The notes: generated from the letters alone by a model not told the origin. A DNA stretch of 64,000 bases from Dehalococcoidia bacterium (GCA_964291545.2 OZ219860.1:745786-809785), one strand, 5' to 3'; positions 31,729 to 51,738 are shown, counted from the stretch's first letter. Numbers and translations are program-made.

Positions 31729-31770
31729 CCTACTCCTCCCTCAACCCCTCATTCCCGGAAGTGTCATTCC

Positions 31771-33173: not shown

Positions 33174-33390
33174 CCCTACCACCCAGGTCCTACCCCCCAA
33201 CCTATCATTCCCCCCAGCACCACAAGCCCGCTGCCTGGCCCGAGACGAGCCCGTCCGTTCGTCCTGAGGGAAATCGAAGGGGGAACGGACGGGCTGGGGA
33301 TTTGTGGGCCGCACCCCCTCTCTCCGTGGAAATGCTATCATTGCCCAATATTTGTTGTGGCCCCATTTCACTGGAACAGGAGCACTGACC

Positions 33391-34293: not shown

Positions 34294-34530
34294 CGCCGAT
34301 ATTAGTACAACAGGCCAACAGAGGGGTGTTCACTCCGTAACTAACATCGCCACTAACGGTCTAGGTGCAGAACCGTAAGCGATCCCAGAACCTCTTCTTC
34401 GGTCTGCCCCCCAAAACTACTGTCATTTCCCCCCTTGCGCCTCCCCCAACCCACCCCCTACCATATCTACAGGCAGCCAAAATTCGTTGCCCAAACCTAT
34501 CAACGGCCACTGAGGCCCCGATGTCCCAAA

Positions 34531-34953
34531 ATGTCTCAAGATGTCCCAGTTGGCAAGAAACCGTCCGTAGCCGCCCGCCAGCAGTCCGTACTCCCCATCC
34601 TCGCTTCCTCTCCCTCCATATCCCAGGCCGCGCGCGCCGTCGGCATTAACCGCCGCACCCTCACCCGCTGGCTCCAGGACCCCGACTTCCGAGACCAGCT
34701 TGCCGAGCTGCAACGCCAGCGCGCCGAACTCGCCAAGGGCTGCCTCCAGGACCTCAGTCTCCAGGCCGTCGCAGGCCTCGTCGAATACCTGCAGGTTCCC
34801 AACCTGGAGATGCGCCTCAAAGCCATCCGCACCATCCTCGAATACTCCGGCAAAGTCGGCGATATCCAGGACCTCAAGGACCAAATCCAAGCTCTCGAGA
34901 CCTCCCTGCCCCTATGGGCCGACCACGCCAAGCCCCGCCGCTCCAACTACTGA
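34531..34953 (+). CDS. hypothetical protein with a probable helix-turn-helix
   Basis: ISQAARAVGINRRTLTRWLQDP is HTH-like, followed by a coiled-coil-like C-terminal half. The start is uncertain. Confidence 0.4.
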   Translation: MSQDVPVGKKPSVAARQQSVLPILASSPSISQAARAVGINRRTLTRWLQDPDFRDQLAELQRQRAELAKGCLQDLSLQAVAGLVEYLQVPNLEMRLKAIRTILEYSGKVGDIQDLKDQIQALETSLPLWADHAKPRRSNY

Positions 34954-35310: not shown

Positions 35311-35424
35311 CCACCCCCCTTGCCACCGCCGCGCCCCGCGGTTAGAGTAGGTAGCGCCCTGCCCGCCGCCCCTCAACACCCCACGCGGCGGCCCGCCTAC
35401 CGATACCTGCCGCTGGAGGCGCCC

Positions 35425-36519
35425 ATGCGCATGGACCCCGTCAATCTCTACGACTACGAAGCCCGCGCCAAGCAGGTCCTTCCCGGCGCCGTCTGGGACT
35501 TCATCGACGCCGGCGCCATGGACGAAATAACCACCCGCCGCAACCGCACCGCCTTCGAAGACCTAACCCTCCGCCCCCGCTTTCTCCGCGACATCTCGAA
35601 GCGCTCCCTCGCCACCACCCTACTCGGCCAGCCCGTCAGCCTCCCCGTATTTGCCTGCCCCGCCGGGATGCACAAGAACGCCCACCCCGACGGCGAATTG
35701 GCCACCGCCCGCGGCGCTGGCATGTCCGGCGCGCTCATGATTCTCGCCAACTCCTCCGCCTACAGCATGGAAGAGGTCGCCCAGGCCGCTTCCGGCCCCC
35801 TCTGGTTCCAGACCTACCAACGAGGCTGGGACATCAGCGAGATGCTCGTCCGCCGGGCCGAGGACGCCGGATTTCAGGCCATCTGCCTCACCGTCGACAC
35901 CCCCGTCGCCAGCCCCAAGGAACGCGACGTCCGCAACAACTACCAGCGCCCCTTCCCCCTCGGCAACTTCCGCGGCGTCCCCGATGCCCAGACCGCCGCC
36001 TTTCTCGACGAGTCCCATGTCTGGGACGACGCCACGTCCCCGCCCATAACCTGGGGCGAACTCGAACGTTTCCGCTCCCTCTCTAACCTTCCCCTGGTGC
36101 TCAAAGGTATCGCCACCGCCGAGGACGCTAACTTGGCTGTCGAGCACGGCGTCGACGCCATCCTCGTCTCCACCCACGGCGGACGCCAGATGGACGGCAC
36201 CATGGGCGCCATCGAAATGCTCCCCGAAATCGTCCAGGCCGCCGCCGGACGCGCCGAGGTCTACGTCGACTCCGGCATCCGCCGCGGCAGCGACGTCGTC
36301 AAGGCTCTGGCCCTCGGCGCACGAGCCGTCGGCATCGGCCGCCCCCTTTTCTGGGGCCTCGCCGTAGACGGCGCAGACGGAGTCCACGGCGTCTTCGAGA
36401 CCCTCCGCACCGAACTCGACCGCTGCATGGCCTTCTGCGGCCAGACCGACGTCCAAGCCCTCGACCCAGCCCTCGTTAACATCTCCCTAAATTGGGGCCC
36501 CGGGACCACCGCCCCATGA
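35425..36519 (+). CDS. FMN-dependent alpha-hydroxy-acid dehydrogenase/oxidase (LldD/glycolate oxidase family)
   Basis: YDYEARAKQVLPGAVWDFIDAGA, VSTHGGRQMDG and VYVDSGIRRGSDVVKALALGA. The start is set at ATG 35425. Confidence 0.88.
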   Translation: MRMDPVNLYDYEARAKQVLPGAVWDFIDAGAMDEITTRRNRTAFEDLTLRPRFLRDISKRSLATTLLGQPVSLPVFACPAGMHKNAHPDGELATARGAGMSGALMILANSSAYSMEEVAQAASGPLWFQTYQRGWDISEMLVRRAEDAGFQAICLTVDTPVASPKERDVRNNYQRPFPLGNFRGVPDAQTAAFLDESHVWDDATSPPITWGELERFRSLSNLPLVLKGIATAEDANLAVEHGVDAILVSTHGGRQMDGTMGAIEMLPEIVQAAAGRAEVYVDSGIRRGSDVVKALALGARAVGIGRPLFWGLAVDGADGVHGVFETLRTELDRCMAFCGQTDVQALDPALVNISLNWGPGTTAP

Positions 36520-36946: not shown

Positions 36947-37435
36947 ATGACCCAACCCCAAACCGTCGAAGAATACCTAACCCAACTTCCGCCCCAACGC
37001 CGCGAAGCCGTCTCCGCCCTCCGCCAACTCATCCTCCAAAGCCTCCCCGACGGCTACCGGGAAACCATACTCTTCGGCATGATCAACTACGTCATCCCTT
37101 TGGACACCTACCCCGTCACCTACAACAAGCAGCCCCTGTCCTACGTCGCCCTCGCCTCCCAGAAGAACTACATCTCCCTCTATCTCATGGGCATCTACGC
37201 CGACGACGCCTCGCGCCAGTGGTTCCTGGACCAATACGCCGCCAGCGGCAAGAAGCTCGACCTCGGCAAGGCCTGTCTCCGCTTCAAGGCCCTCGACGAC
37301 CTGCCTCTCGACCTCGTCGCCCGGGCCGTCGCCCGAACCTCCGTCGCCGACTTCATCCGCCTCTACGAAGCCTCCCGGCCCCCGGCTCGTAAACCCCGCT
37401 CCAGGCCCAAGTCCAGTCCGGAGAAAGCAGCATGA
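36947..37435 (+). CDS. DUF1801 (YdhG-like) domain protein
   Basis: VEEYL..LP..RREAV..LR.LI...LP.GY.E, and later ALASQKNYISLYL. Confidence 0.7.
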   Translation: MTQPQTVEEYLTQLPPQRREAVSALRQLILQSLPDGYRETILFGMINYVIPLDTYPVTYNKQPLSYVALASQKNYISLYLMGIYADDASRQWFLDQYAASGKKLDLGKACLRFKALDDLPLDLVARAVARTSVADFIRLYEASRPPARKPRSRPKSSPEKAA

Positions 37436-38772
37436 CCGCCTCCCAAGACGAACTGGCCCGCTACCGGGAACTCACCCCCAGGTCCCGCGCAATCTGGGAA
37501 GAGGCCGGCGACTTCCTCCCCGGCGGCGACAGCCGTCACTCCGTCTTCTGGAAGCCCTACCCCATATTCGTCGAGTCCGCCTCCGGTTGCCATGTCGTCG
37601 ACGCCGACGGCGTCGACCGCCTCGATTTCATCAACACCATGACCACCCTCATCCTCGGCCACTCCCCCGCCCCCGTCGTCCAGGCCGTCCATGAGCAACT
37701 CGACCGGGGAGTTGTCTACAACGCTCCAAGCCGTCACCAGGTCCGCTTGGCCCAGCTCCTCTGTCAACGGGTTCCGAGCTTCGACCTCGTCCGCTTCACC
37801 AACTCCGGCACCGAGGCCACCATGAACGCCCTCCGCGCCGCCCGCGCCGTCACCCGAAAGAAGCGCTTCGCCAAGGCCGAGGGCGGCTACCACGGCACCC
37901 ACGACTCCGTGTCAGTCAGCCTGCGAGTCGACCCCGCCAAGGCCGGCGACCCTGACCGCCCCCTACCCATTCCCGGCAGCGCCGGTCTCCCCCGCGGCGT
38001 CCTCGAAGGCGCGGTCGTCTTCCCCTTCAACGAGCCCGATGCCGCCCGCCGCATCCTCGAGGAGAACAAGGACGACCTCGCTGCCGTCATTGTCGAGCCG
38101 GTCATGGGCTCCGTGGGCATGGTCCCCGCTACTCCCGAATTCCTCGCCATGCTCCGCGACTTCACCACCCGCAACGACGTCATCCTCATATTCGACGAGG
38201 TGATTAGCTTCCGCGTGGCCCCCGGCGGGGCCCAGGAATACTACGGCATAACCCCCGACATGACCGCTCTCGGCAAGATCATCGGCGGCGGCTTCCCCGT
38301 AGGCGCGTTCGGCGGTCGCCGCGAAATAATGGACCTCTACAACCCCGCCGACGCTCCCCGTGTAGCCCACGCCGGCACCTTCAACGCCAACCCCGTTACC
38401 ATGGTCGCCGGAGCTGCCACCTTGGAGCAACTGACGCCCGGCGTCTACCGCGACCTCGCCGAAGCAACCGAAAATCTCCGACAGGGCGTCCGGGACATCT
38501 GCGCCCGTCTCGAAGTGCCAGTCCAGGTCACCGGCCTCTGCTCCCTCTTCGGCATCCACTTCACCGCCGGCGGCGTGCACAACTACCGCGACCTCGCCGC
38601 CGAAGACGCCGACCTCCGCACCCAGGTATTCTTCGGCCTGCTGAACGAGGGCATCCTGATCGCCCCAAACCTCGTCGGCTCACTCTCCACCGCCATCACC
38701 GCTGCCGAAATCGGCGCCTTTCTCCAGGCATTCGATACGGTACTTCAAAGAGTGCTGCGGCGCCGGCCCTAG
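37432..38772 (+). CDS. class III PLP aminotransferase, glutamate-1-semialdehyde aminomutase-like
   Basis: FTNSGTEATMNALRAAR, ILIFDEVISFRVAPGGAQEYYGITPDMTALGKIIGGGFPVGAFGG. There is a 4-nt overlap with the DUF1801 gene. Confidence 0.85.
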   Translation: MTASQDELARYRELTPRSRAIWEEAGDFLPGGDSRHSVFWKPYPIFVESASGCHVVDADGVDRLDFINTMTTLILGHSPAPVVQAVHEQLDRGVVYNAPSRHQVRLAQLLCQRVPSFDLVRFTNSGTEATMNALRAARAVTRKKRFAKAEGGYHGTHDSVSVSLRVDPAKAGDPDRPLPIPGSAGLPRGVLEGAVVFPFNEPDAARRILEENKDDLAAVIVEPVMGSVGMVPATPEFLAMLRDFTTRNDVILIFDEVISFRVAPGGAQEYYGITPDMTALGKIIGGGFPVGAFGGRREIMDLYNPADAPRVAHAGTFNANPVTMVAGAATLEQLTPGVYRDLAEATENLRQGVRDICARLEVPVQVTGLCSLFGIHFTAGGVHNYRDLAAEDADLRTQVFFGLLNEGILIAPNLVGSLSTAITAAEIGAFLQAFDTVLQRVLRRRP

Positions 38773-40130
38773 CCCGCCCTCGGCTCTCGGGGCGCCGCCG
38801 CCCTGGTAGGCCGGCCCGGCGGCTCCGGCAGCAGAAGGAACAGGCACGAACCGGCCAGAGATACGCCGGCAATGGTCAGGAATGCCGCCGTATAGTCACC
38901 GATCGCGTCCCTCATGAATCCCGCCGCCAGGGGAGCCGCGAACAAGAGGATATTCATCGGCGCCATCGACAGGCCCGAGATGGCGGCAAATCCCTCCCTC
39001 CCAAAGTAATGACCCCTCAGCGCCGTCGTTACCGGGCTCCGCACTGCGCTGCCTATCCCAAACAGCACGCCGAACAGAAACAGCGTCGCCGGATGGTGCG
39101 CCAGCACCAGGATAGCCACCGACGACGCCACTAAAGCGGTGGAACTGAACGCCATGAACCTGACCGGCAGCCGGTCCCCCAGGTACCCGCCTATGGGTAT
39201 GAACCCGGCCGTTACTCCCGTGTAAACTGCCACCAAGGCGGCTATCGTCTCCAGCGAGAACCCCCGGTCATCCAACATCAACCCCATGTGAACGAACACG
39301 GTTGCCGATACGATGGACGATGAAGCGTGGCCCAGACTGATGATCCAGAAGGGCCTGGTCCGAAGGGCTTCCCTCCAGGAATACCTTCCCGGCTCCGGCG
39401 TCGCCCGGGCTGCACCGGCCGCGGCAGGGGGCACAGCCGGCTCGCTCGGCAAATCGCCGTCAGGCATCAGGCCCACGTCCTCCGGCCGGTTGCGTAACAA
39501 TCGCGTCAGCGGAAAGGCCAGCGCAAGTATCAGCAGACCCAGGAACAGGGCGGTGTTCCTCCAACCGTACCGCTCGGAAATATCCGGGTCCGTGCCCCCG
39601 ATTGCCCAGGCCATCAGCACCGGCACCAAGATGCCGCCGATTGCAAACCCCTCGAACACTATCGACATCGCCCGCGCCTTGTGCCGCACGAACCAGTGGT
39701 TCACCAGGGTCATCATCGGCAGCCAGGTGCTCAGGGCCGCCCCCAGGCTGATGGTGAAGAACACCGCATAGAGTTGCCACAGCTCTTCGATGCGGCTGAA
39801 CAGCACCAGTCCGGTTCCCAGGACGGTCAACCCGATGAGCACCACCCGTCGGGTCCCCAGTCTTTGCACCACGAGGCCTTCCAGAGGACCCAACAGTCCG
39901 CCCTCGAGTCTGGTTACCGCAAAGGCCCAGGACATTTGCACCGTCGTCCAGTCGAAGGTGTTCCTCAGCACGGGACTCCACACCGGCAGGCCATGCCACA
40001 GCGGCGCAGAGGCCAAGGCCATCAGCATCGTGCCGATACCGGCCATATACCAGCCGAAGAACATCCCCCTTGCCCGAACCGCGGCCTTGGGAACGCCAGT
40101 AACCCATACCCATACCTGGCTGGCTTTCAT
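38769..40130 (-). CDS. MFS transporter, paralog 1 of 7
   Basis: About 12 TM segments and a motif-A-like G..VQRLGTRRVVLIG. It shares family motifs with the next six ORFs (LPVW.PVLRN, ELWQLY, LAWAIGG.DP, RNRPEDVGL.PDGD, GLMLDDRGFS). Confidence 0.85.
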   Translation of the reverse strand: MKASQVWVWVTGVPKAAVRARGMFFGWYMAGIGTMLMALASAPLWHGLPVWSPVLRNTFDWTTVQMSWAFAVTRLEGGLLGPLEGLVVQRLGTRRVVLIGLTVLGTGLVLFSRIEELWQLYAVFFTISLGAALSTWLPMMTLVNHWFVRHKARAMSIVFEGFAIGGILVPVLMAWAIGGTDPDISERYGWRNTALFLGLLILALAFPLTRLLRNRPEDVGLMPDGDLPSEPAVPPAAAGAARATPEPGRYSWREALRTRPFWIISLGHASSSIVSATVFVHMGLMLDDRGFSLETIAALVAVYTGVTAGFIPIGGYLGDRLPVRFMAFSSTALVASSVAILVLAHHPATLFLFGVLFGIGSAVRSPVTTALRGHYFGREGFAAISGLSMAPMNILLFAAPLAAGFMRDAIGDYTAAFLTIAGVSLAGSCLFLLLPEPPGRPTRAAAPREPRAG

Positions 40131-40258
40131 TCGGATGTGAATCCAACGCCCAAAGCCGATTCCCGCCTTATCTCAGTGGACAACTCCAGGCCCCAATCCT
40201 AGCTTAGTGATCCCGTCCGCGCCACGGGCATGCGGCCCCGCTCTGGGCCCCCCGCCTG

Positions 40259-41596
40259 CTAGGACCTAACCGCCGTCCGGGAAGAACGTCCGGGAGGCTC
40301 TCCTAGTAACAGGAACATCAACGACCCGGTCAGGCATATCCCTGCGATGATCAAGAAAGCCGCCGTATAGTTCCCGGTCGCGTCCCGCATGAACCCGGCG
40401 AACAGCGGCCCGATGAACAGGAAGATGTTCATCGGCATCATCGACATCCCGGAAATCGCCGCGTATGCCTCTGGCCTGAAGTAGTGGCCCCGCAGCGCCA
40501 CCATCACCGGGGCTCTCATCCCCGCCGCCGTCCCCAGCAATACCGCAAACAGGTACAGGGTCAGCTCGTTATGCGCCAGCACCAGCACCACCGGCACCAG
40601 CGACATCAATACGGTGCAACCGAAGGCCATGAACCTGATGGGTACCCTGTCGCCTAAATATCCCCCCACTAGGACGAACACCGCGTTAAAGCCTGTGTGT
40701 GTCGCTACCACCGTGCTTATCGCTTGGAGAGAAAACCCCCGGTCGTCCAGCATCAGCCCCAGGTGTACGAATATGCTGACATTTACAACCGCCGAACAGG
40801 CGTGGCCGATGCTGATCAGCCAGAAAGTACGGGTCCTGATTGCGTCCCTCCAGCTATACGCCCCCCTTACTGCTCTGGACCGGCTGGTCGTCGTGGGTGA
40901 GGCCGGTGCTGCCGGCTCATCCCCGTCGGGCCCCAAGCCCACGTCTGCGGGGCGGTTCCTCACCATGCTGGACAGCGGAAAGGCCAGGGCAATGGTCAAG
41001 AACCCCAGGAACATCGCCGTATTCCGCCATCCAAACCGCTGCGAGATGTCCGGGTCGCTCCCTCCTATGGCCCACGCCAGCAGCACCGGCGATGCCATCG
41101 CTCCCAGCGCAGCCCCCTCCAACACAAACGACATAGCCCTGGCTTTTTGACGCACGAACCAGTGGTTCACCAGCGTCATTATCGGCAGCCAGGTGCACAT
41201 GGCCGAGCCCATGCTCATCAGAAAGAACGTCGCATACAGTTGCCATAGTTCCTGTATCCGGCTGAACATCACCATGCTTGACCCAAGCATGATCATCCCG
41301 ATGAACACTGCCCGCCGCGTCCCCAGTCTCTGGACTAGCAGCCCTTCCAACGGGCCCAGCAGCCCGCCTTCCATCCTCGTCACCGCAAAGGCCCACGACA
41401 GTTGGACCGTGGTCCAGCCGAATTGGTTCCTCAACACCGGGCCCCACATCGGCAGTCCGCCCCACAACGGCGCCGACCCCAGCGCCAGGATCAGCGCGCC
41501 CAGTCCCACCATGACCCAGCCGAAGTACGTCCCTTTGACCCGGCGGACAGCCTCGGGGACCACAGAAGCCAAATCCCATTGGCCGGCGACTTTCAT
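40259..41596 (-). CDS. MFS transporter, paralog 2 of 7
   Basis: Same motif skeleton as paralog 1. It shares the N-terminal extension MK...W.....VP.AVR..KG with paralog 1. Confidence 0.85.
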   Translation of the reverse strand: MKVAGQWDLASVVPEAVRRVKGTYFGWVMVGLGALILALGSAPLWGGLPMWGPVLRNQFGWTTVQLSWAFAVTRMEGGLLGPLEGLLVQRLGTRRAVFIGMIMLGSSMVMFSRIQELWQLYATFFLMSMGSAMCTWLPIMTLVNHWFVRQKARAMSFVLEGAALGAMASPVLLAWAIGGSDPDISQRFGWRNTAMFLGFLTIALAFPLSSMVRNRPADVGLGPDGDEPAAPASPTTTSRSRAVRGAYSWRDAIRTRTFWLISIGHACSAVVNVSIFVHLGLMLDDRGFSLQAISTVVATHTGFNAVFVLVGGYLGDRVPIRFMAFGCTVLMSLVPVVLVLAHNELTLYLFAVLLGTAAGMRAPVMVALRGHYFRPEAYAAISGMSMMPMNIFLFIGPLFAGFMRDATGNYTAAFLIIAGICLTGSLMFLLLGEPPGRSSRTAVRS

Positions 41597-41716
41597 TGGG
41601 CCTGCGCCTTAGAGCGCATGGTGGGTTCCAGTCCCGACTGGGTGGGAAGTTGCTGGCCTGAGCCCGGAAGCGAGACCGGACGGCGTCGTTTTAGGCAGCT
41701 TGAAGAAGCCCGCCAA

Positions 41717-42994
41717 CTAGGACCTCGCCTCCGCCCGGGCAAACTCTGTGGGAGGCTTGCCCATCAGCAAAAACAGGCAAGACCCGAAGAAGGAGAATCC
41801 TGCCACGGCTAAAAACGGCAAGTCGTACCTTCCGGTCAGGTCTCGAAGGAACCCGGCAAATACCGGCGCGGCGAACAGCAGGATGCTCATCGGCACCAGG
41901 GAAATGCTCATGATGGCCGCGTAGGCCTTGCGACCAAAGTAGATGCCCCGGACCGAAAACCCCACCGGCATCCGCGCTCCGCTCCCCACTCCCATCATCA
42001 CCGCGAAGAGCATAAGCATCCACGTATTGTTGGCCAGCGCCAACACCACCAGGGATGCCGATTGAAGAGTAGAGAACCCGAATGTCGTGAGTCTGATCGG
42101 CAGCCTGTCGCCGGCGTAGCCACCCAGCAAGACGAATACGGCGCTCACCGCTGTATAGACGGCTATCACCGCGCTGATGGCCCCAAGCGAAAAACCTCGA
42201 TCGTCTAGCGCCAGGCCCATGTGCACGAATGCTGTGACTATTGCAGTGGCCGAAGCGGCGTGGCCTATGCTCATGAACCAGAATACTGGGGTCTTGACGG
42301 CCTCCTGCCATGTATATCCTTCCAACTCGCCAGAATGCCCAATGTCCTCGTCAATTGCCGGCGTCTCGCCCCCGTGGGCCGCGTCACCGTCGGGATTCAG
42401 CCCTACGTCCTCCGGGCGGTTGCGCACTAGTTGGGACAGGGGGACAGCCAAGACTAAGCACAAGATCCCGACGAACAGCGCGGTGGTCCGCCAGCCGTAC
42501 CGTTCCGATTCCACCGGATTCGAACCTCCGATTGCCCAGGCCAATAGCAACGGCGCGATGATTCCGCCCAGGGCGAACCCCTCCATAGCAAGAGACATGG
42601 CCCGCGACTTGTGCCGCACGAACCAGTTGTTCAACGCCGTCATTACTGGGAGCCAGGTGCCCAGGCTCGAACCCAGGCTTATCACGCAGAAGGCTGCATA
42701 AAACTGCCACAGCTCCTGGACGCGGCTGAAAAGCACGAACCCCAAGCCCAGGACGCCCATGCCGATCAACACCATGCGCCCGGCCCCCAGCTTCTCCGTC
42801 AGATACCCTGCCACCGGGCCAAGAAATCCCTCTTGGACCTGGGTGATGGCATAGGCTCCCGACATTTGGGTCGCGCTCCAACTGAAGGCGTTCCTCAGCA
42901 CCGGATTCCATACCGGCAATCCGTAGAAGACGGGTGATGACCCCAGGGCTATGATCAGCGCTCCGAGAGCCGCTATAAACCAGCCGTAAAACAT
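41717..42994 (-). CDS. MFS transporter, paralog 3 of 7
   Basis: Same motif skeleton. Starts with MFYGWFIAALGAL. Confidence 0.85.
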   Translation of the reverse strand: MFYGWFIAALGALIIALGSSPVFYGLPVWNPVLRNAFSWSATQMSGAYAITQVQEGFLGPVAGYLTEKLGAGRMVLIGMGVLGLGFVLFSRVQELWQFYAAFCVISLGSSLGTWLPVMTALNNWFVRHKSRAMSLAMEGFALGGIIAPLLLAWAIGGSNPVESERYGWRTTALFVGILCLVLAVPLSQLVRNRPEDVGLNPDGDAAHGGETPAIDEDIGHSGELEGYTWQEAVKTPVFWFMSIGHAASATAIVTAFVHMGLALDDRGFSLGAISAVIAVYTAVSAVFVLLGGYAGDRLPIRLTTFGFSTLQSASLVVLALANNTWMLMLFAVMMGVGSGARMPVGFSVRGIYFGRKAYAAIMSISLVPMSILLFAAPVFAGFLRDLTGRYDLPFLAVAGFSFFGSCLFLLMGKPPTEFARAEARS

Positions 42995-42997
42995 CCT

Positions 42998-44305
42998 TTA
43001 CGTCCGCTGTGCTGCTCCGGATAAACCGGTCCGGCCCGCATGTCCGGAGTGTTTGGGCGGCTCACCCAGCAGCAGATACAGGAGGCAGCCGCAGAATGAC
43101 AACCCGGCCACGGCTAAGAGGGGTTGGCCGTAGCTCCCGGTTATGTCCCGCATGACCCCAACCAAGACTGGTACGATGATAAAGAGAAAACTTACCGGCA
43201 CCAGTGATAAGCCGGTGATGGCGGCAAATTCCCTGCGCCCAAAGTATACGCCTCGCACTGAAAACACCAGCGGCATCCTGGACCCTGTCCCCATACCCAA
43301 CATCACTGCAAACACGAAGACGACCCACATTCCCGGTACCAGCACTAGGACAAGCAGGGCCGCCGGTTCCAACACCGAGAATCCGAAGTACGCCAACCTG
43401 ATGGGTATCCTGTCTCCGATGTAGCCGCCCACGAGAATGAACACCGCGTTCGTTCCGGTAAACACCGCCATCACCGCGCCTATCGCTTCCAGGGAGAATC
43501 CCCGGTCGTCCAGCATCAACCCAAGGTGGACCAGCGTCGTCACCATCGCCGTAGACGAAGCAGCGTGGCCCAGGCTGATAAACCAGAAGGCGCGGGTCCT
43601 GATTGCCTCCCTCCAAGTAAGTCCTCCTGAGGCCTCGGTCACTGAAGCATCCGTCGCTGTTTCGGATGGGTTCGCCTCGACTGCCTGCGTCGGGTCGCCG
43701 TCGGGCCTCAAGCCCATGTCTTCCGGCCGGTTGCGCACCAGGCTGGACAATGGAACGGCCAAGACAAGACACGCGGCCGCAACGAATAGGGCCGTAGTGC
43801 TCCAACCAAAGCGTTCCGATATATTTGGATCAACCCCGCCGATGGCCCACGCCAGCAATAACGGCGAGATTATCCCGCCAATGCCCTCGCCCTCCATAGC
43901 AATGGCCATCGCCCTGGACTTGTGCCGCACGAACCAGTGGTTCAGGACGGTCATCACCGGCAGCCAACTGCTCAGGCTCGCTCCCATGGCCATAATGAAG
44001 AAAGCAAAATACAGTTGCCACAGGGCCTGGATTTGGCTGAATAGCGCAAAGCCCGCCCCCAGGACTAGCATCCCGATCAACACCATTCGCCGGGGCCCCA
44101 ACTTTTCCACTAGGGCCCCCACCACGGGACCCATAACCGTTTCTTGGGCCTGGGTTACCGCAAAAGCGCCGGCCATTTGGCCGGCGGTCCATCCGAATGC
44201 GTTTCTCAAGACGGGGTTCCATACCGCCAGCCCGTAATACAGTGGAGCTGCGGCCATGGCGATAATCAGCGACCCTAAGGCCGCCAGTACCCAGCCGTAG
44301 AACAT
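42998..44305 (-). CDS. MFS transporter, paralog 4 of 7
   Basis: Same motif skeleton. Its stop lies 3 nt from the start of paralog 3. Confidence 0.85.
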   Translation of the reverse strand: MFYGWVLAALGSLIIAMAAAPLYYGLAVWNPVLRNAFGWTAGQMAGAFAVTQAQETVMGPVVGALVEKLGPRRMVLIGMLVLGAGFALFSQIQALWQLYFAFFIMAMGASLSSWLPVMTVLNHWFVRHKSRAMAIAMEGEGIGGIISPLLLAWAIGGVDPNISERFGWSTTALFVAAACLVLAVPLSSLVRNRPEDMGLRPDGDPTQAVEANPSETATDASVTEASGGLTWREAIRTRAFWFISLGHAASSTAMVTTLVHLGLMLDDRGFSLEAIGAVMAVFTGTNAVFILVGGYIGDRIPIRLAYFGFSVLEPAALLVLVLVPGMWVVFVFAVMLGMGTGSRMPLVFSVRGVYFGRREFAAITGLSLVPVSFLFIIVPVLVGVMRDITGSYGQPLLAVAGLSFCGCLLYLLLGEPPKHSGHAGRTGLSGAAQRT

Positions 44306-44392
44306 CCTGCGATTCAGAATAGTATCGCCCGTCCCCGGGGCAAGCTAGCTGCCCGAAGTATCACCATACAGCATAGCCCGCCATCCCCCGAT

Positions 44393-45727
44393 TTAGCCCG
44401 TCCTCGACGGCGCCAAACGCCGTCCCGGCGGCTTCGTCGGCTCCCCCATTATCAGCAGCGCTGTCCCTCCAACCAGGGATATCGCCGCAATGCCCAGGAA
44501 TGCCGCGGTATAGCTGCCCGTCTGGTCCCTTACCAGACCGGCCACCACCGGACCCGCCACCAAGAGGGCACTCGTCGGCAAAACCGAGATGCCGCTGATG
44601 GCTGCGAACGCCCTCCGCCCGAAGTACCTGCCCCTCATCGACGTCATGATGGCAAACCGTCCGCCCGTGCCTATGCCAAACAACACCGCAAAAACGAATA
44701 CGATCCCGGACCCTTGCCCCAGCACCAACACCACAGCCGACAGCGACAGCACCGTCGAGAAAGCGAACGCCACCGTCCTGATTTTAAATTTGTCTCCCAG
44801 GTATCCCCCCACCGGCAGGAACACCGCCGTCAGGCTCGTAAACACCGCCACCACCAGACCTATCTCCCCGATAGAGAAGCCGCGGTCGTCCAGCAGCAGT
44901 CCCAAGTGCGCGTACACCGTGCCCAATGTCACCGTCGTCGTCGCGTGGCCGGTGGCCATCAACCAGAAGGTCCTCGTCCTGATCGCCTCCTGCCATGTAA
45001 ATCCATCTTCGTCCCGGGCCGCTGGAGCGCCGCCGCTCTCGCCCTGGGCCCTGGCGCTTGGCGGCGAAGCGGCGCCGTCCGGCAGCAGGCCCATGTCCTC
45101 CGGTCGATTCCTCACCAGCCGCGACAATGGTACCGCCAACGCCAGGCCCACCAGCCCAATGAACAATGCAGTCGTCCGCCACCCGAACCGTTCCGACTCA
45201 TGGGGATCCGTGCCCCCTATTGCCCACGCCAGCAATATCGGCGCGAAGATGCTCGACACCGAAAAACCTTCCTGGGCCAACGCCATCGCCATCGTCTTGC
45301 GCCGGATGAACCAGTTGTTCAACACCGTCATCACCGGCAGCCAGCTGCTCATGGTCGACCCCAGGCTCATCAACACGAACACCACGTACAGGTGCCAAAG
45401 TTCCTGTATCTGGCTGAACAGCACAAAGCCGGCGCCCAGGACCACCAGCCCAAAGAACACCATGCGGCGGGGTCCCAGCTTGTCCACCATGATGCCCAGC
45501 ACCGGCGCCATCGAACCTTCCTGCACCTGCGTCAGCGAAAAGGCCCACGACATCTGCCCTGCAGTCCAACCGAAGCCGTTCCTCAACACCGGGTTCCATA
45601 CCGGCAGGCCGCTCCACAAAGGCGCCACGCCCACGGCCATCAGCAGCGCCCCCACTGCCACCATGAACCAGCCGTAGAACATCCCCCGCACCATGTGCAC
45701 CGCTGTTGCCATCCTGCCCGCGCCCAT
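44393..45727 (-). CDS. MFS transporter, paralog 5 of 7
   Basis: Same motif skeleton. Confidence 0.85.
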   Translation of the reverse strand: MGAGRMATAVHMVRGMFYGWFMVAVGALLMAVGVAPLWSGLPVWNPVLRNGFGWTAGQMSWAFSLTQVQEGSMAPVLGIMVDKLGPRRMVFFGLVVLGAGFVLFSQIQELWHLYVVFVLMSLGSTMSSWLPVMTVLNNWFIRRKTMAMALAQEGFSVSSIFAPILLAWAIGGTDPHESERFGWRTTALFIGLVGLALAVPLSRLVRNRPEDMGLLPDGAASPPSARAQGESGGAPAARDEDGFTWQEAIRTRTFWLMATGHATTTVTLGTVYAHLGLLLDDRGFSIGEIGLVVAVFTSLTAVFLPVGGYLGDKFKIRTVAFAFSTVLSLSAVVLVLGQGSGIVFVFAVLFGIGTGGRFAIMTSMRGRYFGRRAFAAISGISVLPTSALLVAGPVVAGLVRDQTGSYTAAFLGIAAISLVGGTALLIMGEPTKPPGRRLAPSRTG

Positions 45728-45835
45728 CGGAACCGGTCTCCCTGCCTATGTCGCCAAGCCCGTGGTTGTCATTGCCCATTGCCCCTGCAATTCATCTCGG
45801 CTGAGCTCGTTCGTTAAACGGCAATCCCCTGCCTC

Positions 45836-47155
45836 CTAGTACGCCGCTTGTACACCCCTGCCCGCCCGGGCAGCTTCGCCCCGAGGCCTACCAAGGAACA
45901 GGAACAAGCACGAGCCTGCGAACGACAACGCGGCTATGGTCAGAAAGGCCGCGTCATAGCTTCCCCTGGCATCCCTCATTAGTCCTGAAAAGACCGGCGC
46001 GCCGAACAACAGTAGGTTCATGGGCGCTATTGATATACCGGAGATGGCCGCGAAGGCCTTCCGTCCAAAGTACTCCCCCCTTAGCGCCATCATCAACGAC
46101 GTCCGCCCGCCGAAGCCAATTCCGTACAACACTGAAAACAACAGCGCCATCTCAGTGCTGTGGGCCACCACCACGATTACCAGCCCCACCGACTGTAGGG
46201 AGGAGAACCAGAAGGCTACCAGTCTCGTGGGCAACCTGTCTCCCAGGTACCCGCCAATGGGCATGAACACCGCGGCAACCGCGGTATACACCGCCAGCAC
46301 CACGCTTATTGTTCCCAGCGAGAATCCCCGGTCGTCCAGCATCAACCCCATGTGGGCTGCCACCGTTACTACGATCGTCGCCGAGAGCGCATGCCCGATG
46401 GTTATCAGCCAGAACGCTTTGGTCCTGACGGCCTGCTGCCAGGTATACTCTGTCTCCCCCGACTCCGACGCCGCCCCGCCGGATGGCAATGGCGATGCTG
46501 CTGTCCCGGACGGTGGGTCTCCATCGGGCAGTTGGCCAATGTCCGTAGGTTGGTTTCGCATGAGGCGAGATAGCGGTACGGCCGACGCAAGGCACAATAC
46601 ACCGATAAAGAGCGCCGAATTTCTCCAGCCAAAGCGTTCCGATTCCGCCGGGTCCGCCCCCCCAATGGCCCAGGCCAGCAGCAAAGGCAGCACCACGCCT
46701 CCCAACGCATACCCTTCCAGGGCCAACCCCATCGCTATGCCCCTGCGCCGGATGAACCAGTTGTTCACCGCGGTCATGATTGGCAACCATGTCCCCATGC
46801 TGTTGCCCAGGGCCATAATCAAAAAAACCAGGTACAGTTGCCACAGCGCTCCAATTTGGCTGAAGAGGATAAATCCCGTCCCCAGCACGGCAAACCCGAT
46901 GAGCACCATGCGCCGGGTGCCCAGCTTGTCTATCATGGCGCCTATCAACGGGCCCAGCAGTCCGCCCTCGAACTGCGTCAGGGAATAGGCCCAGGCCATC
47001 TGTCCCGCAGTCCAGCCGAAAGTGTTCCGCAGCACTGGGGTCCACACCGGCAGTCCGTTGAAAAGGGGCACCCCGCCCATGGCCAGCACCAATGCCCCGA
47101 AGCCCACCACGAACCAGCCGTAGAACTTCCCCCGCAATCTAAGACCCCTGTTCAC
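45836..47155 (-). CDS. MFS transporter, paralog 6 of 7
   Basis: Same motif skeleton. Confidence 0.85.
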   Translation of the reverse strand: MNRGLRLRGKFYGWFVVGFGALVLAMGGVPLFNGLPVWTPVLRNTFGWTAGQMAWAYSLTQFEGGLLGPLIGAMIDKLGTRRMVLIGFAVLGTGFILFSQIGALWQLYLVFLIMALGNSMGTWLPIMTAVNNWFIRRRGIAMGLALEGYALGGVVLPLLLAWAIGGADPAESERFGWRNSALFIGVLCLASAVPLSRLMRNQPTDIGQLPDGDPPSGTAASPLPSGGAASESGETEYTWQQAVRTKAFWLITIGHALSATIVVTVAAHMGLMLDDRGFSLGTISVVLAVYTAVAAVFMPIGGYLGDRLPTRLVAFWFSSLQSVGLVIVVVAHSTEMALLFSVLYGIGFGGRTSLMMALRGEYFGRKAFAAISGISIAPMNLLLFGAPVFSGLMRDARGSYDAAFLTIAALSFAGSCLFLFLGRPRGEAARAGRGVQAAY

Positions 47156-47400
47156 CCAGGCGTGTCTCAGCCGCGAGCGTTGGCCGACGCTCTGCGGAAA
47201 GCACTACGGTGGAAGCAACTGTGGAAGGACCTTCCGGTTCATTCAAGGCTTGTCTGCCGTCGGGCCGGTAGCCCTTGGACTCGGCCTTGACTCATTTCCG
47301 TATACCAGTGCGAGCTGCCCATCCCCTCATCCCGAAAGCGACCTGCATTCGCAAATCTAGCTATACAGCATCATACACGACCGGACCGCCCATCCCCCTC

Positions 47401-48687
47401 TTACCGGCCTGCCGGTATTCGCCCTTTGTGGCTCACCGGCGCTCCCAGCAGCAGGAACAGGCATGAGCACGACAGGGCGAACGCGCCAATGGTCATGAAC
47501 GCAACGTCGTAGTTACCCGTGATGCCCCGCATCAGCCCCGCGTATACCGGGGCCACAAACCACATTATGGTCGTAGGCACCACCGACAGGCCGAGTATGG
47601 AGCCGAAGGCCCTGCGCCCGAAGTAAATGCCCCGTATAGCGGTGGACGTCGCTGAGCGGCCTCCACCGCCTATCCCCAATAAAACGACGGCGAAAAACAC
47701 CATCTCGGTGCTGTCGGCCGCCACCAGGACCAGCACTGCCACCGATTGCAGGGCGTTCGCTCCAAAGGCCATCAACCTTATGGGGAATCTGTCGGCCAGC
47801 CAGCCCCCCAAGAGAATGGACACGGCAGCAACTCCAGGATAAACCGATACCACTGCGCCTATCGTCGACAGCGAAAAACCGCGGTCATCCAACATAAGCC
47901 CCAGGTGGACTAATACCGTGCAAAGCACGACTGATGAGCCCGCCAGAGCAAAGTTCATCACCCAAAACGTTGTCGTCCTGGCTGCTTCTTGCCAGGTATA
48001 CCCTTCCTCTTCACCCCTCGGCCGCACTTTGGGCGCATCCACTGGCGCCCGCGCGGCCGGTCGCCCCTGGTCGCCGTCGGGCAGCAGTCCCACGTCCTCC
48101 GGCCGGTTACGCACCAGGCTGGATAGTGGAATCGCCAGGGCTAAGGTAAAGACCCCAATGAAGAAGGCGGTATTCCTCCAGCCGTAGCGCTCTGCGACAT
48201 CAGGGTCTGTCCCGCCGATGGCCCACGCCAAGACCAGAGGCGTAACGATCCCGCCCACGGCAAATCCTTCCATCACCAGCGACATTGCCAGGGCTTTCCG
48301 CCTGATGAACCAGTGATTCACCACCGTCATCATGGGCAGCCAGGTGCTGATGGTCGCCCCCACGCTCATAATGAGGAACACAGCGTACAGGTGCCAAAGC
48401 TCCCGTATCTGGCTGAACAGCATGAAGCCGCATCCCAGCACAATCAGCCCGATCAGCACCATGCGCCGGGGTCCCAGCTTGTCGATCAACCAACCGACCA
48501 GGGGCGCATAAGCCCCCTCGATTTGCATGATGGCAAACGCGCCGGACATTTGAAATGCCGACCAGCCGAAGGCGTGTCGGAGCACCGGATTCCATACCGG
48601 CAAGCCATACAAGAGGGGAGCAGAGCCCAAGGCCATGAGGAGAGCGCCTAGGGCCACCATGAACCAGCCGTGGAAAATCCGTCGCAT
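47401..48687 (-). CDS. MFS transporter, paralog 7 of 7
   Basis: Same motif skeleton. Confidence 0.85.
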   Translation of the reverse strand: MRRIFHGWFMVALGALLMALGSAPLLYGLPVWNPVLRHAFGWSAFQMSGAFAIMQIEGAYAPLVGWLIDKLGPRRMVLIGLIVLGCGFMLFSQIRELWHLYAVFLIMSVGATISTWLPMMTVVNHWFIRRKALAMSLVMEGFAVGGIVTPLVLAWAIGGTDPDVAERYGWRNTAFFIGVFTLALAIPLSSLVRNRPEDVGLLPDGDQGRPAARAPVDAPKVRPRGEEEGYTWQEAARTTTFWVMNFALAGSSVVLCTVLVHLGLMLDDRGFSLSTIGAVVSVYPGVAAVSILLGGWLADRFPIRLMAFGANALQSVAVLVLVAADSTEMVFFAVVLLGIGGGGRSATSTAIRGIYFGRRAFGSILGLSVVPTTIMWFVAPVYAGLMRGITGNYDVAFMTIGAFALSCSCLFLLLGAPVSHKGRIPAGR

Positions 48688-48807
48688 CAGGGGCGCCTAC
48701 TCCGCCGGCCGCGCGGCCAGGGCTGCTGTGGTCGGGCATCAAGGCGGGGCATCACCCCTAGTCCCCTGATAGTCCCATATTCCAATACTTGGCGCCGTCG
48801 AGGTTGG

Positions 48808-49944
48808 TTACGCGGCCTTGCTCCGCAGCGGAGCGCTCATCCGGTGAAGGTGCCCCACTATTTCCTTCTGTGACCCCAGCACGCTCGTCTCATGGTAAGG
48901 AATCCCGCGCTTCTTGCAGAACTCCTTGACGATTGCCTGGGCCTTCCGCAGGTTGTTTCGGGGCATGTTGGGGAACAAGTGGTGTTCGATTTGGCAGTTC
49001 AGGCCGCCGTAAATGAAGTCGGTAACCGGATGTGCCTTTACGTTTCGGGACGTAATTATCTGCTGGCGCATGAACCCAATGTCTTCGTCCGGAGCCAGGA
49101 CCGGCATGGCTTTGTGATTGGGCGCAAACACCGAGCCCATGTACACCCCCTCCACAGCCTTGTGGACCAGGATGAACAACACGGCGTATACCGGCCCCAA
49201 GAATATGAACAACAGCCCCAAATAAGCGGCTAGGTTGGCGACCACCAGCAGCGGCTCCACCGCGGGATATCTCAGCTTCCCCCCGGTCAGCATGTAGTGG
49301 ATGCCCGCAAAGAAGAAGCTCAGCGCCGCCAGCATCAGCACCGGGAAGAACATCACGGCTTGATACTTCACAATCTGCCTGTGCAGTCCCTTTTTGTTGG
49401 CCAGGTCCCCTTCGCTGAACGCCAAGATAGACACGTTGATGTCGTCGTCTTCCCCCTGTTTGTTGGGGCTGACGTGATGCCGCAGGTTGTGCTTATCGTT
49501 CCACCAGCTGGGCACCAGCCCCAGCAGCAACCCCATCGCCAGGCTGATGAAGTGGTTTCCTCTTGCCGATGCACAGATCTGCTGGTGCCCGGCGTCATGG
49601 GCGATCAACGCCAATTGCGCGAACGCAAACCCCAAAAAGGCCGCGTTCAGCAACTGCAGCGGTCCGCTGTCCACCAACACCAGGAAGGCTATGCTCGCCG
49701 CTAGCAAACATACCGTCAACGGAATCTTAGCCATGTAGTATCCCGTCTGCCGGTCCAGCAGCCCGCTTTCCCTCACCAAGCGGCGCAACTCCCCGTATTG
49801 CAAGGCATCCAGGCGAATCGGGTCCGGCTCAGTCGCAGGTATCGCCCGGGCGTCCGTTACACCCGGCATTGGTTCATTCAGGACGAGATTCTTTGTTGCC
49901 ATATTCAACCTCCCCCACAGGGCGCAAGTTGCCCGAGCCCACAC
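48808..49944 (-). CDS. membrane fatty-acid desaturase family protein
   Basis: Three His boxes are present: HDAGHQ, HNLRHH and QIEHHLFP. Several TM segments are also present. Confidence 0.8.
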   Translation of the reverse strand: MWARATCALWGRLNMATKNLVLNEPMPGVTDARAIPATEPDPIRLDALQYGELRRLVRESGLLDRQTGYYMAKIPLTVCLLAASIAFLVLVDSGPLQLLNAAFLGFAFAQLALIAHDAGHQQICASARGNHFISLAMGLLLGLVPSWWNDKHNLRHHVSPNKQGEDDDINVSILAFSEGDLANKKGLHRQIVKYQAVMFFPVLMLAALSFFFAGIHYMLTGGKLRYPAVEPLLVVANLAAYLGLLFIFLGPVYAVLFILVHKAVEGVYMGSVFAPNHKAMPVLAPDEDIGFMRQQIITSRNVKAHPVTDFIYGGLNCQIEHHLFPNMPRNNLRKAQAIVKEFCKKRGIPYHETSVLGSQKEIVGHLHRMSAPLRSKAA

Positions 49945-50100: not shown

Positions 50101-51738
50101 TCAAGCGACTCCAAGGCCCAGGACATCCTCCGCCATCTCCCTAAGCTTGAACTTCTGGACCTTGCCGCTGGGAGTCATAGGGTATTCCTGCATGAATACA
50201 ACGTGGCGGGGCGTCTTGAAGCTGGCCACTTTGCCCCGGCAGTAGTCGATGAGTTCCTCGGCCGTGGCTTCCTGCTGTTCTTCCAATATTACGCACGCGC
50301 AAGCCACTTCGCTTAACCGCTCGTCTGGCACCCCTACTATCTGTACCCCGCTCACTGCAGGATGCCCCAACATCAGGGCTTCCACCTCCACCGGGTCCAC
50401 GTTCTCCCCGCCCACTTTTAGCATCTCTTTGATGCGGCCTATGAAGCGGACCTGACCGTCCGCCCGGATCGTTGCCAGGTCTCCCGTGTGAAACCAGCCG
50501 TCAGAGTCTACCGCCCGGCTGGTCTCGTCCGGCTTCTTGTAATACTCCAGCATAATGGCGTACGTGCGTACGCACATCTCCCCGGGGCTATCCGCCGGAA
50601 GGTCCGCTCCGGTCTCCGGGTCTATTACCTTGAACTCGTACCCGGGCAATGGAAACCCGGATCCCGTGCACCGGTCATCTTCCGAAGAATCCAAGAACGA
50701 CAGGGACGCTCCCACTCCCACCTCGGTCATTCCCCAACCCGACACGGTGTGGCAAAGCATCTTTTGGGCCAGTCGCGCCGTCGGTTCGCTGCTGGCCATC
50801 CCGGCGGCCAGGATCCCCGTGCGCAGGCTGCTTCGGTCAACCGATTCGCACTTGGGATGGGAGGCCAAAGCCCGGAAATGAGTGTCAAAACCGTGCAAAA
50901 CGGTGGCCCTTTCCCGCTCTATCAGGCCAAGCGATTCCTCCGGATTGAACAACGTGGTCAGCACGGTGCGTACTCCGATCATCGCTCCCATCAGCGGGCC
51001 CTTGTAGAGCCCGAAAGCATGAAACAACGGCAGGTACATCAGCACCGCGTCCTTGCGCGTCATCCCCATCCTGTTGGCCGCATCGTTTACGGTTCTCTGT
51101 ATCTTGTGGCTGAGCACCACTCCCTTTGGAAAACCTGTGGTGCCCGAGGTATACATAATCAACGCTGCGCCATCCGGGTCGACCTTTCTCTGACGGGCCT
51201 CCAGGTCCCTTTCTGAGACCGACTCAGCGCCCGCCAACGCGTCCTCCAAGATAAACACCCCTATATGACGCCGCTCCCCTAGCACAATCACTCGTTTCAA
51301 CTCCGGGAACCTCTCCGGCCTCAGGTCATTGGGGTTGCCACCGTCCACCTCCGGGCACAGGCTCCTCACCATATCCAGGTAGCCCACGGGACCCGACCTG
51401 TCCACTGTAATCAGGGTGCCGGCGTCAGACTGCCGGACGACGTACTCCAGGTCAGTGGTGCGAAACCGCGTGTTCGCCGGGACCAGCACCGCGCCGATTT
51501 TCATCACTGCGAAGAACAGGTGGATCCATTCCGGCCGGTTGGGCATCCACAACACCACCTTCTCCCCCGGCTGGATGCCCAAGCCCATGAGGGCCCTCGC
51601 GCAACGGTCGACGTCGTCCTTGAGTTGTTCGAAGGTCCACCGCTGGCCTTCGTAATACAGTGCCTCGCTTGGCCCAAAAAGGCGCGCCGCCCTGTCTACC
51701 AAATCGCCGATTCCGGTTTTCTCGTACCAGTCAGACAC
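50101..51738 (-). CDS. AMP-dependent acyl-CoA synthetase/ligase
   Basis: YTSGTTGFPKGV, GWFHTGD and GRIKEMLKVGGENV. Confidence 0.87.
   Translation of the reverse strand: MSDWYEKTGIGDLVDRAARLFGPSEALYYEGQRWTFEQLKDDVDRCARALMGLGIQPGEKVVLWMPNRPEWIHLFFAVMKIGAVLVPANTRFRTTDLEYVVRQSDAGTLITVDRSGPVGYLDMVRSLCPEVDGGNPNDLRPERFPELKRVIVLGERRHIGVFILEDALAGAESVSERDLEARQRKVDPDGAALIMYTSGTTGFPKGVVLSHKIQRTVNDAANRMGMTRKDAVLMYLPLFHAFGLYKGPLMGAMIGVRTVLTTLFNPEESLGLIERERATVLHGFDTHFRALASHPKCESVDRSSLRTGILAAGMASSEPTARLAQKMLCHTVSGWGMTEVGVGASLSFLDSSEDDRCTGSGFPLPGYEFKVIDPETGADLPADSPGEMCVRTYAIMLEYYKKPDETSRAVDSDGWFHTGDLATIRADGQVRFIGRIKEMLKVGGENVDPVEVEALMLGHPAVSGVQIVGVPDERLSEVACACVILEEQQEATAEELIDYCRGKVASFKTPRHVVFMQEYPMTPSGKVQKFKLREMAEDVLGLGVA

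Follow-up and report, generated by a model that had tools for sequence, protein, structure and literature searches.

A conserved tandem array of seven diverged major facilitator superfamily transporter genes at a desaturase locus in a Dehalococcoidia bacterium

Organization of the array

The locus described here lies in a stretch of 64,000 nucleotides from a Dehalococcoidia bacterium (GCA_964291545.2 OZ219860.1:745786-809785), hereafter the window, and consists of seven back-to-back minus-strand open reading frames (ORFs) of 425-453 aa at 38769-48687 that encode transporters of the major facilitator superfamily (MFS). The copies are numbered 1 to 7 along transcription, with copy 1 (47401-48687; 428 aa, Pfam MFS_1 E 1.8e-32) transcribed first and copy 7 (38769-40130; 453 aa) as the last gene of the array. 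Between them lie copy 2 (45836-47155; 439 aa), which has a GTG start and, as a possible alternative, an in-frame TTG a few codons downstream, copy 3 (44393-45727; 444 aa), copy 4 (42998-44305; 435 aa), of which an identical protein (P0001) is present in a public collection, copy 5 (41717-42994; 425 aa), which starts 3 nt downstream of copy 4, and copy 6 (40259-41596; 445 aa). Counted from the copy 7 side, the spacers measure 128, 120, 3, 87, 108 and 245 bp, and the stop of copy 7 overlaps the end of a convergent aminotransferase gene by 4 nt. The ORF listing contains no gene inside the array other than the seven MFS ORFs, no regulator or binding protein was found near it, and a hidden Markov model built from the seven copies detected no further family member within the 64-kb window. 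A preliminary description, made from the sequence alone, had given the strand, sizes and spacers of these ORFs exactly and had noted that no regulator or binding protein lies among them; the ORF listing agrees on each point. AT skew reaches +0.13 to +0.15 across the array (38000-48000), a value that fits T-rich hydrophobic codons on a minus coding strand.

The seven proteins are clearly related but strongly diverged. Pairwise identity is 51-64% (51-63% to the first copy in the alignment), with copies 6 and 7 as nearest paralogs at 64%, and 104 columns of the seven-copy protein alignment are invariant. The motif skeleton quoted in the preliminary description can be followed through this alignment, from FYGW, LPVWNPVLRN.FGW, KLG.RR.VLIG (motif A), ELWQLY and WLP.MT..N.WF to LAWAIGG.DP..SERFGWR, VRNRPEDVGL.PDGD, VH.GLMLDDRGFS, GGY.GDR.PIR and RG.YFGR.AFAAI. 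At the DNA level, identity between copies in 300-nt registers is 60-76%, which rules out both collapse or misjoining by the assembler and recent amplification.

Family assignment and fold

All seven copies match Pfam MFS_1 (PF07690) above the gathering score (113-138 bits vs 33.4, E 1e-32 to 1e-40), and motif A, in the form G.L..KLG.RR..LIG, is conserved across them. When a profile of the seven was compared with solved structures, the top match was SfMCT (E 1.4e-32), the L-lactate:proton symporter of Syntrophobacter fumaroxidans and a bacterial homolog of the SLC16 family of monocarboxylate transporters (MCTs; PDB 6G9X/6HCL, NCBIfam NF049980), followed by human MCT2 and MCT1. An AlphaFold2 model of copy 4, with a mean predicted local distance difference test (pLDDT) of 88 and a predicted template modeling score (pTM) of 0.86, contains 12 transmembrane (TM) helices and a disordered loop at 190-237. 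In a Foldseek search with this model, the top 50 matches were all MFS transporters, with SfMCT entries first and MCT2 and OxlT, a member of the oxalate:formate antiporter (OFA) family, after them. By both profile and fold, the closest overall relatives are thus of the SLC16/MCT type, SfMCT first and MCT2/MCT1 next. The assignment to the MFS made in the preliminary description is borne out by Pfam, by the structure profile search, by the 12-TM model and by the fold search.

Curated families fit less well. The NCBIfam ranking is headed for all seven copies by the SfMCT L-lactate transporter, followed by bile-salt MFS and oxalate:formate families, all of them far under their cut-offs: scores are 98-129 bits against the 320 required by the SfMCT-type equivalog NF049980, 39-82 against 374.85 for TIGR00890 and 37-66 against 335 for TIGR04259, the last two being oxalate:formate models. 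The cut-offs of the drug:H+ antiporter models TIGR00711 and TIGR00900 are likewise not reached; TIGR00711 (DHA2/EmrB-type) scores 18-31 bits vs 230, and the 12 TM helices of the copy 4 model differ from the 14 expected for DHA2. Sequence and fold thus place the proteins in the MCT/OFA branch of the MFS, outside every curated family compared.

Distribution in related genomes

Relatives were collected by a homology search with copy 4, which returned hundreds of proteins, many of them on shared contigs. Contigs were retrieved and one genome per species was scanned, with a gene directly upstream of the array as the anchor. This gene (48808-49944, minus strand) encodes a membrane protein of the fatty-acid-desaturase family (Pfam FA_desaturase E 4e-34) with the His boxes HDAGH, HNLRHH and QIEHH; it is 77-89% identical in the related loci and adjoins the MFS gene or genes in all array loci and in two more distant Dehalococcoidia, L005 and L009. 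Seven family copies in the same order as in the window occupy the desaturase locus in L002 (3.08-Mb contig) and L007 (2.6-Mb chromosome). At least six are present in L003 and at least five in L004, in both of which the locus end cuts the array, whereas L001 has six, L083 has six and one split copy, and L084 carries an array that has been rearranged by insertion sequences (ISs). Every related locus belongs to a record titled Dehalococcoidia bacterium. The seven-gene order recurs in the independent assemblies L002 and L007, and L003 has six copies or more, in agreement with the earlier statement that the array is no assembly artifact.

L005 and L009 have one MFS gene between the same desaturase and a thioredoxin-like gene, L005 also with the aminotransferase, and in L006 and L008 no family member was found within 10 kb of close desaturase homologs. 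When metagenomes were scanned with the family alignment, 77 of the 86 loci had one copy, and none of those outside the desaturase synteny had more than two. Because distant relatives carry one copy at the same locus, the array is a trait of one sublineage that has grown in place from a single ancestral gene. The remark in the preliminary description that a seven-deep array is unusual needs a qualification: in the closest lineages, arrays of five to seven are the rule here, against one copy in L005 and L009, which makes the array a property of the lineage and not an oddity of this genome. Nor is this a well-characterized transporter routinely found in such arrays, since the family is uncharacterized.

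The array is also a target of disruption in relatives. In L003, copy 2 carries an IS-like insertion of about 1 kb at its 5' end (about 13820-14930), DDE transposase genes at 4428-5760, 11804-13135 and 19641-20972 split and invert the array in L084, and one copy in L083 (5134-6517) is divided into pieces of 295 and 168 aa by a frameshift or a long-read error. With regard to the host, the histidinol dehydrogenase (HisD) encoded in the window has its nearest named homologs in Dehalococcoidia (72%) and a SAR202 cluster bacterium (68%), which suggests a Dehalococcoidia lineage related to SAR202.

Age, selection and duplication history

In a bootstrapped neighbor-joining tree that includes the window, L007, L002, L003 and other genomes, each of the seven positions forms a clade of its own with 100% bootstrap, so that the array already had seven genes before these four genomes diverged. 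The ratio of nonsynonymous to synonymous substitution rates (dN/dS) relative to the orthologs is 0.10-0.22 for every copy: 0.15-0.18 for copy 1, which is 83-91% identical to its orthologs in L007, L002 and L003, 0.12-0.17 for copy 2, 0.11-0.18 for copy 3, 0.12-0.22 for copy 4 and 0.10-0.17 for copy 6. For the paralogs, pairwise dN is 0.24-0.40 and pairwise dS 0.96-1.57, the latter essentially saturated. Taken together, these values indicate seven functional genes whose duplications are far older than the divergence of the four genomes. The view of the preliminary description that this is an old, maintained expansion, for which a phylogeny of the seven proteins had been proposed, is thereby upheld through the fully supported ortholog clades, the low dN/dS and a paralog dS above 0.95.

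Not all of the duplications are equally old. Copies 4 and 5 pair as sister groups (bootstrap 86), and one L001 gene is sister to the pair (87), while copies 6 and 7 form a group with single genes of L001 and L083, in which the pairing of the two copies is weakly supported (49). None of the L004 copies falls into one of the seven positional clades in the bootstrapped tree, and copies 2-5 of L004 cluster together in an unbootstrapped tree, a pattern that would suggest separate duplications in the L004 lineage. Copy 5 shows a different history again. Its orthologs (L007 16936-18216, L002 11300-12580 and L003 19115-20395) are 88-89% identical to it in L002 and L003 vs 84% in L007 (dS 0.79), whereas for each of the other six the closest ortholog is that of L007, at 91-94%. 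Since the identity pattern of copy 5 is discordant with that of the other six, it suggests that this one array gene was replaced by recombination.

Predicted binding site

The structure of SfMCT provides a reference for the substrate pocket. Its ligand contacts are L28, Y119, L145, N276, R280, Y331, F335, F359 and C362; R280, which binds the carboxylate and is positioned by N276, is essential, as is N276 itself (PMC6573034). These positions were transferred onto the array copies by profile alignment at 22% identity. At the R280 equivalent, copies 1-7 carry I, M, L, I, V, V and I, and at the N276 equivalent A, A, T, N, S, N and T, with Asn in two copies, so that the SLC16/MCT combination of a TM8 Arg with N276 is not found in the array copies when aligned to SfMCT. 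Invariant in the subfamily are instead a TM4 Trp (Y119 equivalent), a TM5 Glu (V143 equivalent) and a TM10 Arg (M334 equivalent); in copy 7 numbering the invariant residues are W136, E160, H281 and R364, and in copy 4 the TM5 Glu is E138 and the TM10 Arg R343. Glu, Arg and Trp are all invariant in the 15 closer subfamily members checked, and across a 59-sequence alignment Arg is invariant while Glu and Trp are present in at least 90%. Among 82 distant relatives (26-39% identity), by contrast, the R280 position holds Arg in 24 and Lys in five, the TM5 Glu is absent and the Glu/Arg pair is lacking. Because the Glu, Arg and Trp are invariant in the closer members, and Arg or Lys at the R280 position is frequent and the Glu absent in distant relatives, it is this relocated charge arrangement that defines the subfamily.

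Variation among the copies was examined by classing alignment columns according to their behavior across the four close genomes (window, L007, L002 and L003). Of 433 columns, 80 (18.5%) are fixed within orthologs and take at least three states among paralogs, and 87 are invariant. Against this background, seven of the nine SfMCT pocket-equivalent positions are ortholog-fixed yet paralog-variable (binomial P = 1.9e-4). The changes involved are chemically large: from copy 1 to copy 7, the L145 position reads F/Y/F/E/F/A/F, with copy 4 alone placing a Glu (E140) where the others have Phe, Tyr or Ala, the Y331 position reads G/F/T/T/S/A/S and the F335 position S/T/F/M/M/A/S. The helices richest in paralog-specific positions are TM10, TM11, TM7, TM1 and TM5. 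Diversification of substrate range, as suggested in the preliminary description, gains support from the pocket pattern. The accompanying idea that divergence might concentrate in the central cavity holds at the SfMCT contact positions but only weakly by helix class, with 24% paralog-specific columns in cavity helices vs 18% in peripheral helices.

Spacers and flanking genes

Several spacers between the genes are conserved between genomes. The 245-nt spacer upstream of copy 2 (47156-47400, minus strand) contains a block, GGTCGTGTATGATGCT, identical in four genomes, which may be a candidate internal promoter or operator. The 87-nt spacer upstream of copy 4 (44306-44392, minus strand) is strongly conserved, for example in GGACGGGCGATAC.ATTCT, and the 128-nt spacer upstream of copy 7 (40131-40258, minus strand) holds the block ACTAAGCTAGGATT, conserved in three genomes. 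Because the spacers that precede copies 2, 4 and 7 hold blocks identical between genomes, the array is probably not one simple operon, and internal regulation is suggested. In contrast to these longer spacers, copies 4 and 5 are separated by 3 nt in four of four close genomes, and these two genes are probably co-transcribed or translationally coupled. A sequence common to the spacers before copies 2 and 4, ATGCTGTATRG, was considered as a regulatory motif and rejected, as at least two matches were obtained in 24 of 100 shuffles; a motif within chance leaves only the conservation of spacers between genomes to count. A search against Rfam detected no RNA element in the array and a single tRNA in the window.

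The genes upstream of the desaturase run in the same direction as the array. An acyl-coenzyme A (CoA) ligase gene (50101-51738, minus strand; Pfam AMP-binding E 3e-82) has as best NCBIfam matches a fatty-acid-CoA ligase family, a FadD3-type family and cyclohexanecarboxylate-CoA ligase, all below their cut-offs, and is placed differently in L083. The co-directional block begins with a gene for an HtrA/Do-type serine protease with a PDZ domain (51751-53001, minus strand), syntenic in L002 and L083. In L001 (4105-4797), L002 (4445-5137) and L083 (2630-3319), an opposite-strand gene for a membrane-fusion-like protein of the HlyD family (229-230 aa) separates the desaturase from the first MFS gene; it has been lost from the window (48688-48807) and from L007, where 120 bp are left.

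On the other side, three genes converge on the array. The nearest (37432-38772, plus strand) encodes a class-III aminotransferase of the glutamate-1-semialdehyde aminomutase-like type (Pfam Aminotran_3 E 8e-61, with NCBIfam support) and forms a conserved locus boundary, occupying the same position in L001, L002, L083 and L005. The other two encode a DUF1801 protein and a member of the flavin mononucleotide (FMN)-dependent 2-hydroxyacid dehydrogenase/oxidase family (35320-36519, plus strand; Pfam FMN_dh E 2e-121), the latter syntenic in L002 and L083.

Subfamily members elsewhere have other neighbors. In L089, a close member lies 34 bp from a complete set of genes for benzoate-CoA ligase, BoxB and BoxC (11318-16228) of the aerobic benzoyl-CoA pathway, all above NCBIfam cut-offs; this member, P0089, is very abundant in metagenomes (119 sequences, 133 contigs). 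In L085, another member follows an Amidohydro_2 gene within a cluster of luciferase-like monooxygenase, glyoxalase and Rieske genes. Together with the ligase at the array, the L089 and L085 neighborhoods are circumstantial hints of organic-acid uptake.

Other features of the window

The remainder of the window contains several mobile or repetitive features. Two inverted IS copies (19846-20892 and 31771-32817), 1047 nt long and 99% identical, each with a 333-aa rve-family integrase, enclose 10.9 kb with CysS-like, MeaB, SPFH/NfeD, aldo-keto reductase and short-chain dehydrogenase/reductase (SDR) genes, and the bracketed segment could be a composite transposon or an inversion substrate. A 750-aa ORF at 21002-23254 has a class-I cysteinyl-tRNA-synthetase catalytic domain and a C-terminal family-2 glycosyltransferase domain, which would be an unusual fusion provided that the listed ORF is real. 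Short interspersed intergenic repeat families extend over approximately 17700-33300 (for example, 26251-26581, 29148-29242 and 30701-30795), with hairpin-forming cores such as GTCATTCCGG...CCGGAATC, GTCATTCCGAGCG...CGAGGAATC and CGTTCGTCCTGAGG..CTCGAAGGG. They look like repetitive extragenic palindromic (REP) or miniature inverted-repeat transposable element (MITE)-like elements, and none was found within the MFS array. One of these families is an 82-nt unit that occurs four times in tandem at 32801-33126, beside the second IS copy. Right after this copy follow genes for an Mrr-type restriction endonuclease (33304-34293) and an IS-type helix-turn-helix protein (34435-34953); GC content over 32000-34900 is 55.7% vs approximately 62-66% in the flanks, and the region is probably a small mobile island, 1-4 kb from the FMN_dh/DUF1801/aminotransferase flank of the array.

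At 5124-6536, ORFs of 442 aa (plus strand) and 457 aa (minus strand) overlap on opposite strands, the minus ORF having no Pfam or NCBIfam match. No RNA gene was found in the window other than a minus-strand tRNA-Leu gene (anticodon CAA, 61255-61340). The GC skew of all 2-kb bins is negative (-0.005 to -0.335), independent of gene strand, and the window therefore lies within a single replichore.

Proposed function and alternative explanations

Considering the evidence above, the array probably comprises seven permeases with different specificities that arose by old in-place expansion of an uncharacterized MCT/OFA-like subfamily. In this scheme, a single ancestral gene would have given rise to seven tandem genes at its original site by old duplication, all seven still encoding intact 12-helix permeases under purifying selection. 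They would share a common transport machinery, consisting of motif A, a TM7 His and the subfamily set of TM4 Trp, TM5 Glu and TM10 Arg, which may replace the carboxylate-binding TM8 Arg of SfMCT and MCT1. On this common base, the copies differ at SfMCT-type pocket positions, each difference being fixed per orthologous lineage; it is because the pocket-equivalent residues differ between paralogs and are fixed within orthologs that seven different specificities seem most likely. The predicted function is proton-coupled import of small organic acids, such as aromatic, alicyclic and aliphatic monocarboxylates and possibly zwitterions, in which the TM10 Arg may hold the substrate and the TM5 Glu and TM7 His may couple transport to protons, with the imported products entering CoA-ligase-dependent catabolism. 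Change in the array meanwhile continues by duplication, loss, IS disruption and at least one probable recombinational replacement of a single gene.

Several considerations weigh against this proposal. The substrates, the inward direction and the proton coupling are inferred, and with the carboxylate-binding TM8 Arg absent, an anionic substrate is an assumption. The pocket was mapped at 22% identity, and the cavity-facing orientation of the Glu and Arg is predicted from sequence alone; moreover, the enrichment of paralog-specific columns by helix class is weak. Promoter-like (two) and terminator-like (12) sites are no more numerous than in shuffled sequence and so carry no information on operon structure. 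As for the neighborhoods, the link between ligase and array may be plain synteny, and the box-gene adjacency in L089 is convergent and not conserved in L086-L088, for which reason benzoate was rejected as a substrate beyond a hint. Membership of the host in SAR202 is suggested just by the 68% HisD identity.

Among the alternatives, it is unlikely, though well worth keeping in view, that the seven proteins are exporters that expel partly oxidized, undegradable organic fragments or toxic intermediates. Landry et al. proposed such export for SAR202 MFS1 proteins (PMC5395668), and the direction of MFS transport cannot be read from sequence; yet by sequence and fold the proteins stand closest to solute:proton symporters or exchangers of the MCT/OFA type, matches to drug-efflux families such as TIGR00711 are marginal, and subfamily members adjoin catabolic entry enzymes, namely CoA ligases and box genes. 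The HlyD-family gene between desaturase and array in three relatives would suit an exporter, but its absence from the window and L007 marks it as dispensable. Distinctly less probable is that all copies transport one common substrate and have been retained for dosage or for differential regulation, through different promoters, affinities or conditions. Saturated dS, paralog identities of only 51-64% and large chemical changes at seven of nine pocket positions (F/Y/E/A at one, G/F/T/S/A at another) speak against a shared substrate; in its favor are the invariant core residues and the conserved blocks in several spacers, with their suggestion of separate regulation.

A role in lipid metabolism with the adjacent ligase and desaturase, in the form of fatty-acid or lysolipid uptake or flipping by analogy with LplT-Aas, is very unlikely. 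It could draw on the desaturase-MFS adjacency, kept from single-copy outgroups to arrays, and on the fatty-acid-CoA ligase families among the best matches of the ligase, but no family member lies within 10 kb of the close desaturase homologs in L006 and L008, the ligase is placed differently in L083, no lysophospholipid- or fatty-acid-transporter family appears among the NCBIfam matches at E <= 0.001, and seven specificities are hard to explain for membrane lipid turnover. The chance that the array is an assembly artifact or a set of decaying duplicates is practically negligible: nothing in the window points to it, and the split copy of L083 and the IS-broken array of L084 are found in relatives only, whereas the DNA identity of 60-76%, the same order in independent long assemblies, the intact ORFs and the dN/dS of 0.10-0.22 all contradict it.

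A broader extension of the proposal that the array comprises seven permeases of different specificity is quite unlikely. According to this extension, the locus is a transporter battery evolving by gene birth and death, in which the seven pockets would mirror how chemically diverse marine dissolved organic matter is and the TM5 Glu/TM10 Arg arrangement would be a new recognition mode in the MCT/OFA branch, possibly for bulky carboxylic acids, alicyclic or aromatic, of the carboxyl-rich alicyclic type. If true, the array would give the oxidation of recalcitrant organic matter proposed for SAR202-type bacteria its first concrete and assayable uptake step.

Significance and comparison with known systems

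In the ocean, SAR202-type Dehalococcoidia are abundant, and the expansion of paralogs in their genomes is considered to widen the range of usable organic compounds, a view that derives mostly from enzyme counts. The present locus lets such an expansion be traced stepwise at one site, where the copy number has risen from one to six or seven. Small single-subunit permeases are easier to express and screen than multi-step pathways, and the array is therefore a direct way to test whether a larger set of paralogs means a wider substrate range. The change from a TM8 Arg to a TM5 Glu and TM10 Arg likewise offers a specific, mutable prediction on how an MCT-like fold may be rewired.

The MFS abundance of SAR202-type Dehalococcoidia has already been published in the form of counts, with 129 MFS1 proteins in five single-amplified genomes and 42 COG0477 proteins in strain JH545, and the functions suggested were general, such as multidrug-like exporters and sugar uptake (PMC5395668, PMC10444878, PMC11994032). 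The array resembles these cases in that transporter paralogs are found in organisms thought to oxidize diverse dissolved organic matter. The cultured strain JH545 was rejected as the source of the window, since its GC content is 51.8% vs approximately 60-65% here. In the literature searched, no description was found of the subfamily, of the conserved array of five to seven genes at the desaturase locus or of the pocket pattern, and the SAR202 pangenome paper does not mention transporters. A parallel from eukaryotes is provided by yeasts, for example by the HGT/KHT genes of Kluyveromyces marxianus, tandem MFS paralogs that are reported as a diversification of the sugars transported (PMC6335341); these are sugar porters of an MFS family other than that of the array copies.

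The closest single comparison is with SfMCT. The copy 4 model matches it with a Foldseek E value of 1e-15 and TM-scores of 0.71-0.83, the 12-TM MFS architecture is the same, and the TM7 His and the TM4 (Y/W)LP motif are common to SfMCT and the array copies. However, identity is just 22-23%, in the array copies a further conserved loop, LAWAIGG.DP..SERFGWR, lies on the periplasmic side between TM5 and TM6, and no tandem array has been reported for SfMCT. OxlT is comparable in fold (8HPK, TM-score 0.77-0.86), and its family matches are significant, reaching 82 bits, but the array copies have no basic TM8 residue at the aligned substrate-binding position. The mammalian SLC16 proteins MCT1, MCT2 and MCT8 are the next-best solved relatives after SfMCT (E 5e-20 to 1e-8). 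The array copies differ from them in that they do not have the TM8 Asp/Arg signature, are bacterial, are encoded by tandem genes and have no known ancillary protein. SLC16 paralogs have acquired different substrates, including lactate, ketone bodies, thyroid hormone and aromatic amino acids, and pairs of cavity residues are important in MCT1 and MCT8. Set beside these systems, the superfamily is ordinary and the array is not mechanistically surprising; what is new here is an uncharacterized subfamily with a rewired predicted site, encoded in an unusually deep tandem array that is conserved across species.

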